Origin: Acidobacteriota bacterium
Lineage (GTDB): Bacteria > Acidobacteriota > Thermoanaerobaculia > Multivoradales > UBA5704
Direction: 5' to 3'
Assembly (NCBI GenBank): GCA_040005235.1
Contig: JBDTZG010000011.1
Location: forward strand, 1 to 64,000
Length of the DNA stretch: 64,000 bases
The notes under the pieces are model-generated. The model had not been told where the DNA came from. It searched no databases and saw nothing but the letters and a program-made list of their open reading frames with translations. A program made the position numbers and the translations under genes. This document shows, piece after piece, positions 10,676-45,252 of the stretch. Each line of letters starts with the position of its first letter. Position 1 is the first letter of the stretch.

Positions 10676-11091
10676 CGTTCGCTCCTCTTTTCACCCTCCG
10701 AACGGCGTTTCCGTCCCGGGCGGGAAGGGTGGATTCTACTTGAGGGCGATCCAGGCCGGACGCCAGATCGATCAACTTTCCGGCGGTTCGGAGTCCGGCG
10801 CCGGTCCCACCCGCCGCTCGAACCGCACAGCCAGCCGCATGATCTCGCGCCGCTGCTCCGCCGCCCATTCGCGGCGCCCCCTCGACGGAGCCCACCTGCC
10901 GCGGCTCGTTCTCCACCTCTTCCGCGCAATCTTGGAGGTGCCGCAGCTCGGCCCCCATGGCTCGGAGCTTCGCCCGGATCACCGATTCGCCGAGCACCTT
11001 CGGTTCGAGAGGCTGCGCACCCGCTCCAAGGTAAAAAAGACCTTCACCGGCAACTAAGTTCTAAGAAACTCCTGATCGGAATCGGACGGCA

Positions 11092-11322
11092 ATGGCCAAT
11101 CCTCGGATCCCCGCGACGAACGCCGCGCTCAAGAACCTGCGTCAGGCGAAAGGCTTGACCCAGGCCGAGCTGGCTGCCGAGACCGGCTTGGCGGAGGGCA
11201 CGATTTCGGATTACGAATGCGGCGATCCGGCTCTCCCCAAGCCGCGCCTCGACGAGATGATGGGATCGATCGACATCGCGCCGGAGCTGACCTCGTGCAC
11301 AGTATCCGGGAAGCGGCGCTAA
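11092..11322 (+). CDS. XRE-family helix-turn-helix protein (short, possibly truncated)
   Basis: LKNLRQAKGLTQAELAAETGLAEGTISDYECG. Confidence 0.75.
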   Translation: MANPRIPATNAALKNLRQAKGLTQAELAAETGLAEGTISDYECGDPALPKPRLDEMMGSIDIAPELTSCTVSGKRR

Positions 11323-11456
11323 GCTCTCGGGTTTCCAAGCGTCGGTCCTTGGGCTACGCCCCTTGCTTCCTGTTCTGTGCACGCCGATTTCGAGAGCTCC
11401 TCCCCGCGCCATCGCCACGGGGCCGGAGGTCGCTAGAAGAGGGCGCACAGCGCTCT

Positions 11457-11750
11457 GCATAGGTGCGCAGCGTCCGGGCACAGGTGCATTCTTCCAGTGC
11501 ACCTGTGCACTGCGGCTGCGCACATGTGCGCTGGCGGATTGCACAAGTGCAAAATGCAGGAGCACCTCTGCAAAGTCGGAATGCACATGTGCGCCGAGGG
11601 ATTGCCCAGGTCCAAAGTTCCAGCGCACTTGTGCATTGCGGCGTTGCACAAGTGCAAAACTTGGGGGCACTCCTGCAATCCCCTGGTGCACAAATGCAAA
11701 ACGGCGGTGCACCTCTGCAAAACATGGTTGCCCCTGTGCAAAGTGCTTCC
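11457..11750. repeat. array of 14 units at exact 21-bp period; palindromic core TGCAC-NN-GTGCA with variable spacers
   Basis: GCAC/GCCC/GCAT unit starts at 11457, 11478, 11499 ... 11730, every 21 nt. Confidence 0.9.
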
Positions 11751-11799
11751 GCCGGGAGCCGGAAGGCGCGGATCCTTAGTGAGCGGTACACTCCGGCCC

Positions 11800-12891
11800 A
11801 TGCGATTTCACGACGACTGCTTGGTGATCGACGGCCACACTGACGTACCGACTCGGCTTTGGGAGGAGCCGGTCGACCTGCGCAAGCGGCAGCGCGATCG
11901 GCAGGTCGATCTGCCCCGGTTGAAGGAAGGAGGCGTCGACGCCCTCGTCTGGGCACTTTTCCTCCCGGCGAGCCTCGACCCGGAAGCCGGGCGCGAGCAT
12001 GCGCGGCGCCTATACGAAGCGTCGCTTGAGCACCTCGTGCCGGGCGAGCTCGAAGGGGCGCGCAGCGCCGAGGACGTCCGAAGGAACGCCGCGCGCGGGA
12101 TCGTCTCGGTCGTGTTCGGGCTCGAAAACGGCCGGCCGTTGCCGCTTCCCGGCATGATCGACGAGTGCGCGCGCTGGGGCGTCCGTTACGTGACGCTCAC
12201 CCATTTCGGCAGCCACGAATGGTGCGACGCCTCGACCGACGAGTCGCGCCACGGCGGGCTTTCGGCGGAAGGGCGCGATCTGATCCGCCGGCTCAACCGG
12301 GCGGGCATTTTGCCGGACGTCTCGCACGTGTCGGATGCGGCGGCCGAGCAGGTGCTCGACGTTTCGAAGGTCCCGCCGATCGCCAGCCACAGCTCGGCGC
12401 GGGCGCTCTGCGGCCACCCGCGCAACCTTTCCGACCCTCTGATCCGTGAGATCGCACGGCGCGGCGGGGTCGTGATGGCGAACAGCTTCCCCCCGTTCGT
12501 CGACGACGAAGCCGCCGAGGCGCTTACCGAACGCGAGGCGAGCCTGGCCGAGGAGCGCCGCGAGCTGTCCGCCCGGTATTGGGACGAGCCCGGACCGGTC
12601 GCCCGCGAGTGGGCCAGGATTTACGCCGATCGCCCGCTCCCCGAGGTGACGCTCGACCGGTTCGTCGACCATCTGGTTCACCTGATCGAGTTGGGCGGCG
12701 AAGAGCACGTCGGGATCGGCAGCGATTTCGACGGAATCCACGAGACGCTTCGGGGCTTCGAAGACCCGTCCAAATTTCCCGATCTCACGGACGCCCTGCT
12801 GGCCCGCGGAGTGGACAAGGGCGGAGTGCGGCTGATTCTGGGCGAGAACTTCCTCCGCGCGCTCGCCGCGGCGGAAGAGGCGGCGGACTGA
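11800..12891 (+). CDS. membrane dipeptidase (peptidase M19)
   Basis: VIDGHTD, GLENG, YVTLTH, DVSHVS, ASHSSARA, HPRNLSD, GIGSDFDG, GENFLR; ATG 11800. Confidence 0.9.
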   Translation: MRFHDDCLVIDGHTDVPTRLWEEPVDLRKRQRDRQVDLPRLKEGGVDALVWALFLPASLDPEAGREHARRLYEASLEHLVPGELEGARSAEDVRRNAARGIVSVVFGLENGRPLPLPGMIDECARWGVRYVTLTHFGSHEWCDASTDESRHGGLSAEGRDLIRRLNRAGILPDVSHVSDAAAEQVLDVSKVPPIASHSSARALCGHPRNLSDPLIREIARRGGVVMANSFPPFVDDEAAEALTEREASLAEERRELSARYWDEPGPVAREWARIYADRPLPEVTLDRFVDHLVHLIELGGEEHVGIGSDFDGIHETLRGFEDPSKFPDLTDALLARGVDKGGVRLILGENFLRALAAAEEAAD

Positions 12892-44992: not shown

Positions 44993-45252
44993 GGGAATGC
45001 CTCTTTGAGCCGGCGGGAAGGGCATTCCCGGATGGCGGGAAGGCCCCTCCCTGGGGCAGGGAAGGCCCTTCCCAGCGACGGGGAATGCCCCTCCTTGGGC
45101 AAGGAAGGCCCTCCCGAGAAGCAGGGAAGGGCCTTCCCGAGGGCGAGGAAGGGCCTCCCCGGGTGATGGGAATGGCCTTCCCGCCGCCGGGAATGGCCTT
45201 CCTCGCAGCAGGAATGGCCTTCCTGGCGATAGGAATGGCCCTTAGGCTCAAG
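44993..45252. repeat. array of 12 units at 21-22-bp period; palindromic core GGGAAGG-N-CCTTCCC with variable spacers
   Basis: GGAA at 44994, 45016, 45038, 45060, 45082, 45103, 45125, 45147, 45169, 45190, 45211, 45232. Confidence 0.9.

Follow-up and report, generated by a model that had tools for sequence, protein, structure and literature searches.

A genus-restricted family of helically phased 21-bp dyad arrays in a Thermoanaerobaculia genome, best explained as a dispersed non-coding minisatellite element

An array of 14 head-to-tail 21-bp units occupies positions 11457-11750 on the forward strand of the window, a 64-kb stretch of an Acidobacteriota genome. The array is real and is most likely non-coding. 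Its best explanation is a genus-restricted, dispersed, non-coding minisatellite element, and this variant of the minisatellite-element kind is new. The window array would be one 5ˊ-shortened copy of the element, consisting of a leader of ~170 nt followed by ~14 units of 21 bp.

When laid out in 21-bp steps from 11457, the array holds a constant phase with zero indels, which bears out the 14 indel-free units of exact 21-bp period described in an earlier note on this sequence, including the example units given there. Each unit follows the formula GCACnnGTGCA, or a one-base variant of it, followed by ~10 less conserved nucleotides. The dyad, (T)GCAC-nn-GTGCA, covers unit positions 1-11, and a variable part that falls into types covers positions 12-21. 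The sequence GCACNNGTGCA, with at most one mismatch, is matched 26 times in the 64-kb window, and 23 of the 26 matches lie inside 11456-11740. Shuffling the entire window by dinucleotides yields 12.0 +/- 3.9 matches, with none of 100 shuffles reaching 26. The exact 10-bp dyad GCACNNGTGC is present in seven of the 14 units, and the full 12-bp dyad TGCACNNGTGCA in only three. Because the two halves of the unit differ, TRF reports just parts of the array, namely 11497-11551 (period 21) and 11492-11655 (period 63). Contigs from two public runs, possibly of the source sample, cover 10900-12300 and agree with it at every position, and thus the array is neither an assembly break nor a collapse.

The genome carrying the window (G000, 6.22 Mb) contains the exact 10-bp dyad 88 times, clustered at multiples of 21 bp on several contigs. 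A scan with a unit profile and weight matrix identified eight homologous GCAC arrays, located at C6 10466-10738, C66 12763-13110, C66 128094-128303, C82 45874-46020, C98 30644-30930, C111 11457-11750 (the window array), C111 117653-118130 and C124 5349-5062. The genes flanking the other seven are unrelated to the neighbours of the window array. Contig C37 begins (C37:1-140) within the trailer that follows an array at the orthologous sites of two further genomes, G002 and G007, and therefore a ninth array may have been lost from the G000 assembly at a contig break.

Absence of such arrays from related genomes had been named in the earlier note as an outcome that would count against its interpretation. 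BLAST instead finds family arrays in six of seven other genomes of the same genus, and in none of 11 other genera of the bacterial family. A single 28-nt BLAST match in another bacterial family was rejected, as there is no array there. Including fetched loci, the collected set comprises 36 family arrays from seven genomes of one Thermoanaerobaculia genus. Most of these have 13-16 units (range 6-22), and paralogous arrays are just 65-80% identical. The orientation of neighbouring genes exhibits no significant bias among the 36 arrays, with the upstream neighbour co-oriented in 17 cases, divergent in 9 and unclear in 10 as judged by a crude gene caller. BLAST searches of plasmid and phage collections gave zero matches to the family array.

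Scanning 185,579 species genomes for the pattern recovered at least 11 true family members among the 119 stretches listed. Eight of these carry titles, which assign four to Thermoanaerobaculia, three to Holophagales and one to a 3-kb contig of a 'Gemmatimonas' bin; the other three are listed with no record title shown. Most of the remaining listed stretches are near-perfect 21-bp repeats that were read as Ala-Pro-Val-Pro-type linkers. Seven stretches were also found in viral contigs. Three other stretches from the species genomes (L102:339-760, L080:66-317 and L135:301-489) have a 21-bp period in which a related core, GYACCWCTGCA or GCAYCRGTGCA, is joined to a variable remainder. Arrays of this type come from MAGs labelled Clostridia and Planctomycetota, with the title of L135 not shown. 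The architecture built on these cores may be wider than this genus.

The 472 units of the family reveal a sharply divided repeat. Positions 1-4 and 8-11 carry 1.4-1.9 bits of information, compared to 0.2-0.85 bits at the centre (positions 5-7) and 0.3-0.8 bits at positions 12-21. Of the 472, 462 have G at position 1 and 468 have C at position 10. The earlier note had proposed a conserved 12-bp dyad separated by unique spacers of ~9 nt. The dyad is indeed kept, but the presumed spacers belong to a few recurrent types, for example AAAAYnCCRGC, CTGSCGGATT and ATYTTCCAGT, that are homologous between paralogous arrays. Because so few types exist, mutual information is high solely among positions 12-21 of a unit. 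The types often alternate, which creates super-periods of 42 or 63 bp. Units are also asymmetric, as TGCAAAA is present on one strand.

A leader of ~170 nt is common to approximately 15 of the 36 arrays, and a second kind of leader precedes six. An alignment of 15 leaders, together with BLAST, locates the shared leader in the window at 11290-11456 (forward strand), where it is shortened at its 5ˊ end; the 3ˊ part of the leader at locus L003 matches C111:11318-11395 by BLAST. Approximately seven fuller copies, including that of L003, retain a promoter-like TTGACT-18-CATCAT located ~180 nt 5ˊ of the first unit. The window copy begins inside the leader, no sigma-70-like site was found in 10950-11900, and no copy in G000 matched the promoter part of the leader by BLAST. 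An RNAalifold analysis of 14 leaders did not reveal a conserved fold (−9.3 kcal/mol, covariation term 0.02).

Some arrays are followed by a trailer that holds a GC hairpin, CCTGGGGC-TTCG-GCCCCAGG, which is also found without arrays. This hairpin is seen at C59:30380-30833 of G000 and in the trailers of L003, L004, L012 and others. In one case it adjoins a gene for a Y1 transposase, and the genome has 11 matches to PF01797. The GC-hairpin trailer is probably a separate REP-like repeat that is part of a REP/RAYT system.

Comparison with relatives indicates how the window copy came to its present position. Upstream of the array, 11092-11322 (forward strand) encodes a 76-amino-acid XRE-type helix-turn-helix (HTH) protein (Pfam HTH_3, E 1.4e-8) whose homology is cut after 11289. 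The stop codon of this ORF, at 11322, is separated from the array by 134 nt, close to the 135 bp given in the earlier note. The orthologue in the closest relative, G003, is 86% identical over 74 amino acids and then extends for ~600 bp more; this intact gene encodes ~270 amino acids, ends ~100 bp before the dipeptidase gene and is array-free. Homology between the window and G003 ends after 11289, precisely where the leader begins. The array is likewise missing from a contig of another study's run, X4, which leaves the window at the 11289/90 junction, continues like G003 and rejoins at 11783/4. The stretch between the end of the array and the renewed G003-type collinearity (11751-11783) resembles the native G004 sequence that precedes the orthologous gene. 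Next comes a native gene outside the element, which encodes a peptidase M19 (membrane dipeptidase) at 11800-12891 on the forward strand (PF01244, E 4.6e-86). Its orthologues are 83-98% identical in all five genus genomes tested, with the 98% value belonging to G003, and none of the five has the array upstream.

Presumably, a recombination or insertion event brought the element to this site and replaced the 3ˊ two-thirds of the XRE regulator gene. Since the arrival of the element coincides with the loss of the 3ˊ part of the gene, the 76-amino-acid ORF is a remnant. The functional link between XRE protein and array that the earlier note had considered is not supported, given that the gene is cut off here and its intact orthologue in the closest relative is array-free. 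In G007, an unrelated 21-bp array of at least eight units (unit CAGAACAGTGGTGATCTAGGC, L014:1-170), cut by the contig end, is located directly upstream of the dipeptidase orthologue, at the same position as the window array.

Other sites provide further views of array turnover. The C6 locus spans 60 bp in G003 versus 1.3 kb in G000, where it comprises an HTH gene, leader and array. Orthologous arrays of G000 and G003 are ~93% identical and differ by 42-bp or 84-bp indels or by the loss of the leader plus seven units, and the length differences amount to whole units every time.

The family is part of a wider class. A TRF analysis of all of G000, which is a soil bacterium, reveals a sharp excess of periods at 21 bp (65 rows) and 20 bp (30), as well as at 42 (19), 40 (9) and 41 bp (6). 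A genome-wide period scan had been proposed in the earlier note, and the general class of element suggested there is borne out: the genome has 104 arrays with units of 20-22 bp, totalling ~24 kb. This count, which applies to G000 only, combines merged TRF rows with the arrays of the family scan and excludes two CRISPR arrays. The unit period is 21.0 bp in 73 arrays, 20.0 bp in 23, 20.5 bp in four, 20.7 bp in two and 22 bp in two. Arrays with a period of 20 or 22 bp cannot be translated repeats, and these periods speak for helical phasing. Of the 104, 40 contain a perfect dyad whose arms are at least five bases long, only one lies inside a long coding-like ORF, and 11 are at contig ends.

The 104 arrays represent a dozen or more unrelated sequence families, with palindromic cores that include GATAGCGGCTATC, GGAATATTCC, CCCGAA-n6-TTCGGG, GGTCCGGACC and GGAAGGGCCTTCC. 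Examples are found at C56:53726-53926, C19:10224-10541, C8:39280-39532 and C33:36325-36786. The second array recognized in the earlier note, at 45012-45240 of the window with 22-bp units and the core GGAAGGGCCTTCC, is among the 104.

The likeliest mechanism, ranking ahead of selfish, RNA and peptide readings although we place it slightly below an even chance, is that the element serves as a landing tract for protein. The 10-12-bp dyad of each unit (TGCAC-nn-GTGCA) lies exactly two turns of the helix away from that of its neighbour, which places all dyads on one side of the duplex. The element might thus work as DNA, offering docking sites in a row to a putative dimeric protein of the helix-turn-helix type that would coat or wrap the array. 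Such binding could have consequences ranging from a roadblock or silencing to DNA structuring or upkeep of the element itself.

Several properties of the dyad are consistent with protein docking. The half-sites carry similar information and mutate independently, and no compensatory covariation was observed in intra-unit or inter-unit stems, where T-A at pair 2/9 was seen four times versus approximately two expected. A centre of 2 nt leaves no possibility for a hairpin loop. Taken together, the 2-nt centre, symmetric information, independent half-sites and two-turn spacing are marks of sites for dimeric DNA-binding proteins. Between orthologous arrays of G000 and G003, the dyad differs at 21 of 336 positions versus 55 of 546 elsewhere, which is a marginal difference (Fisher p 0.06). 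A comparison of array C66a with the 11-unit array L023 (8 of 88 dyad positions different versus 55 of 143 in the rest) was set aside, because a register shift between repeated units gives the same picture. Genome-wide there are 14 perfect 12-bp dyads, of which 12 lie inside family arrays. A dyad-specific protein would therefore target the arrays alone, and a regulon of scattered single sites is absent. Outside arrays the dyad is mildly avoided, but not exceptionally so, with 54 occurrences observed versus 95 expected (rank 38 of 256 half-sites).

An unlikely reading, yet the strongest of the competing ones, sees the element as a minisatellite, selfish or neutral, that serves no host function and is bound by no sequence-specific protein. 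The dyad would then be kept because it drives amplification or recombination, whether by slippage, by folding into hairpins or cruciforms, or as a site that a mobilising enzyme recognizes. The copies are dispersed and differ in presence among close relatives, and the arrival of the window copy destroyed a gene. Changes by whole units, the varied gene neighbours and orientations, and a rate of divergence (6-13% inside arrays versus 3-13% in collinear intergenic flanks) that is about that of the surrounding sequence are likewise what this reading predicts. In addition, the closest described analogue, BrickBuilt, is interpreted as a MITE (PMC4596501). Set against this, two full copies exhibit weak and inconsistent inverted pairs, and no terminal inverted repeat recurs between both. 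No target duplication can be defined, because comparisons of filled and array-free sites involve replacement or lost synteny. Array length is also rather uniform at 13-16 units, and the dyad has been kept in nearly all units as the rest diverged, which concerted evolution alone would not achieve.

The promoter-like sequence and directional leader of the fuller copies, along with the strand asymmetry created by TGCAAAA, instead invite the proposal that each element is a non-coding RNA gene with its own promoter that functions through its transcript, for instance by sponging an RNA-binding protein at multiple sites. We consider this doubtful. No RNA run covering 10900-12500 of the window was found. 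Both strands of the array fold far better than shuffled sequences (z −6.4 and −4.4), but strong folding, and on both strands, is expected of any row of palindromes. The leader lacks conserved structure, the stems lack compensatory changes, and the window copy and all other G000 copies are without the promoter part. No match to Rfam 15 reaches its gathering score; the best are miRNA models at no more than 24 bits (top score 23.7 against a gathering score of 99), where gathering scores range from 50 to 124. A sponge of the CsrA type was rejected, as a search of G000 did not find a CsrA gene.

Because the consensus unit contains no stop codon, all six frames are largely open, and ORFs in each of them span most of the window array, as the earlier note had observed for both strands; a TAG at 11460-11462 interrupts the frame that starts at 11457. 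The alternative raised in that note, a heptad-repeat peptide, would take the form of a His/Cys peptide, H-x-C-K/T-x-x-x, that is perhaps metal-binding or modified. This possibility is very improbable. The HxC frame does have the fewest stops and the best codon score of the six, and in the window it continues in frame into the dipeptidase ORF. Its six stops, in five of the 36 arrays, are matched by seven in the mirror frame on the other strand, compared to 11-26 in the remaining frames and an expectation of 26-38 for each frame under independence of unit positions. Equal depletion in a frame and its mirror is better attributed to CTAG avoidance and fixed dyad bases than to translation.

Codon use in the HxC frame is far from that of this genome's genes, for which 1,649 ORFs served as the reference. 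Lysine is encoded by AAA 240 times versus 37 for AAG (26.5% AAA in genes), leucine by TTG 138 times versus 88 for CTG and 39 for CTC (9.6% TTG in genes), and threonine by ACT 87 times versus 23 for ACC and 35 for ACG (4.9% ACT in genes). The resulting codon score is −0.035 versus +0.511 for genes. Furthermore, the third positions of this frame (G at 1 and C at 10) are among the best-conserved bases. The earlier note had contrasted gain and loss of spacers with synonymous-type change at orthologous loci; orthologous arrays differ in length by whole units, and across the family the supposedly synonymous positions are the most conserved. The array at L022 changes phase by 1 bp and then continues, no ORF ends are conserved across the family arrays, a Pfam search with the six frames of the array gave zero family matches, and sister arrays with 20- and 22-bp units cannot encode a protein.

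Finally, the array sits between the XRE and dipeptidase genes, as would a local set of operators through which the XRE protein controls the dipeptidase gene, but this proposal is scarcely credible given a truncated XRE gene with an array-free intact orthologue, dipeptidase orthologues that all lack the window array, and the unrelated neighbours of the other seven arrays.

Among known systems, the closest resemblance in architecture is to BrickBuilt of Porphyromonas gingivalis (Klein et al. 2015), which consists of imperfect tandem repeats of 23 nt, each with one half conserved and the other variable (PMC4596501). BrickBuilt has promoter activity, is confined to few hosts and is present in 19 intergenic copies, of which only some have a leader and tail (PMC4596501, PMC10969869). 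What marks it as a MITE is the presence of target duplications together with IS5-like terminal inverted repeats (PMC4596501). As far as these accounts describe it, BrickBuilt shares with the present family head-to-tail imperfect units of about two helical turns (23 nt versus 21 here) with no separate spacers, a unit of which one half is conserved and the other variable, some 10-20 dispersed and strictly intergenic copies per genome within a narrow host range, spurious ORFs called across the element, and promoter-like sequence inside it. In keeping with that pattern, the arrays described here have imperfect repeats of ~20-23 nt divided into halves and many dispersed, intergenic, non-identical copies confined to few hosts. 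Leaders accompany only a part of the arrays here, and the common trailer also stands by itself. The two systems differ in that they come from different phyla and are likened by architecture rather than by sequence. Moreover, the conserved half is a dyad in the present array, and the 104 arrays here fall into a dozen or more unrelated families, versus the two minisatellite-bearing MITE types (23 and 41 nt) reported in P. gingivalis. Since IS5-like inverted repeats and target duplications could not be demonstrated, we describe the element as BrickBuilt-like rather than as a member of that family. A literature search for tandem palindromic repeats in Acidobacteria or Thermoanaerobaculia found nothing relevant.

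Other classes of repeats exhibit more limited similarity. BIMEs place REPs in alternating orientation. The REPs themselves are imperfect palindromes of 20-40 bp that form hairpins and carry a GTAG or CGTC tag (PMC3733652). The present arrays resemble the REP/BIME-RAYT system as short palindromic repeats between genes, in many copies and sometimes clustered, in a genome that encodes Y1 transposases. However, all units are arranged head to tail, have a 2-nt dyad centre and carry no tag, and thus neither a tagged hairpin palindrome nor alternating orientation was found.

Plasmid iterons and centromeres, such as the 22-bp iterons of R6K, the 12 sopC repeats of 43 bp in F and parC of R1, are helix-phased tandem protein sites, some with inverted repeats, that are cooperatively bound by small DNA-binding proteins. 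They are present at one or two loci per replicon, beside rep or par genes. Tandem, helix-phased sites, some with internal inverted repeats, are common to both, whereas the family arrays form eight dispersed chromosomal copies with unrelated neighbours and without plasmid or phage matches.

The succession of a leader and a regular pattern of repeats and variable segments is also reminiscent of CRISPR arrays. In those, repeats of at least 23 nt are separated by unique spacers of about the same length and accompanied by cas genes. The unit here is 21 bp (11 conserved plus 10 variable), its variable types recur, and there is no adjacent cas gene. The actual CRISPR arrays of G000, at C45:5-504 and C68:66895-68055, have a period of 65-66 bp and a repeat that starts with GTCGCCCCCTGCGCGGGGGCGTGGATTGAAAC.

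If proteins dock on these arrays, small proteins of the XRE fold are candidate binders. Upstream of the C6 array lies a gene for a small HTH protein whose Pfam matches are weak. An iterative search that began with this gene led to a family of small XRE-fold proteins that lacks annotation and has 15 genes in G000. Seven of the 15 are located within 1.5 kb of a 20/21-bp array, compared to 0.82 of 15 expected at random (maximum of five in 2000 draws), and four have an array 8-221 bp 3ˊ of the stop codon. Generic HTH_3 genes are enriched near arrays as well (12 of 64 within 1.5 kb), and therefore the co-location may just reflect shared variable regions. The family model indicates an XRE/Cro-type fold, and its best PDB matches are to ClgR, lambda cI and C-proteins of restriction-modification systems, all of them weak (E >= 0.024). 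Among HTH-family loci from other genera, none of 25 has an array.

In one branch of this protein family, formed by the genes on C128, C135 and C99 of G000 and at L183 of G002, the stop codon is followed, at a distance of 8-221 bp, by a 20-bp array sharing GGGACG, and GGGACGnATAGCC is also common to three of these four arrays. Each combination of a small XRE-fold gene with a GGGACG array looks like a gene-plus-array module (C128:9391-10131, C135:30787-31566, C99:1514-2517 and L183:1180-1950). The C6 gene itself was rejected as the cognate binder of GCAC arrays. Its orthologues in G003, G004 and G007 and its paralogue on C126 are without an array of the GCAC type, and hence the adjacency of gene and array at C6 looks incidental. 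Near C6-type HTH genes there is a run of 11-bp direct repeats, GCCGATAAACC x 3.7, at L216:2993-3033 (the C126 paralogue in G000) and L212:1885-1926 (the G003 orthologue). This run may be the operator of the C6-type HTH protein itself.

A broader proposal, which we regard as speculative and rather unlikely, is that each family among the ~100 phased dyad arrays is the pad of its own small XRE-fold protein, with the binder of the GCAC family encoded elsewhere.

In the published descriptions considered here, BrickBuilt is the only analogue of phased dyad arrays in print, and it is presented without a function. Arrays of this class break assemblies and yield spurious ORFs. G000 is an unusually rich case, with many array families, clear orthologous and array-free sites, and candidate binders adjoining some of the arrays. 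If each array family does prove to be the pad of its own protein, these arrays would be protein-coated tracts of DNA that together form a system not yet described, serving silencing, the structuring of DNA or the upkeep of mobile DNA.
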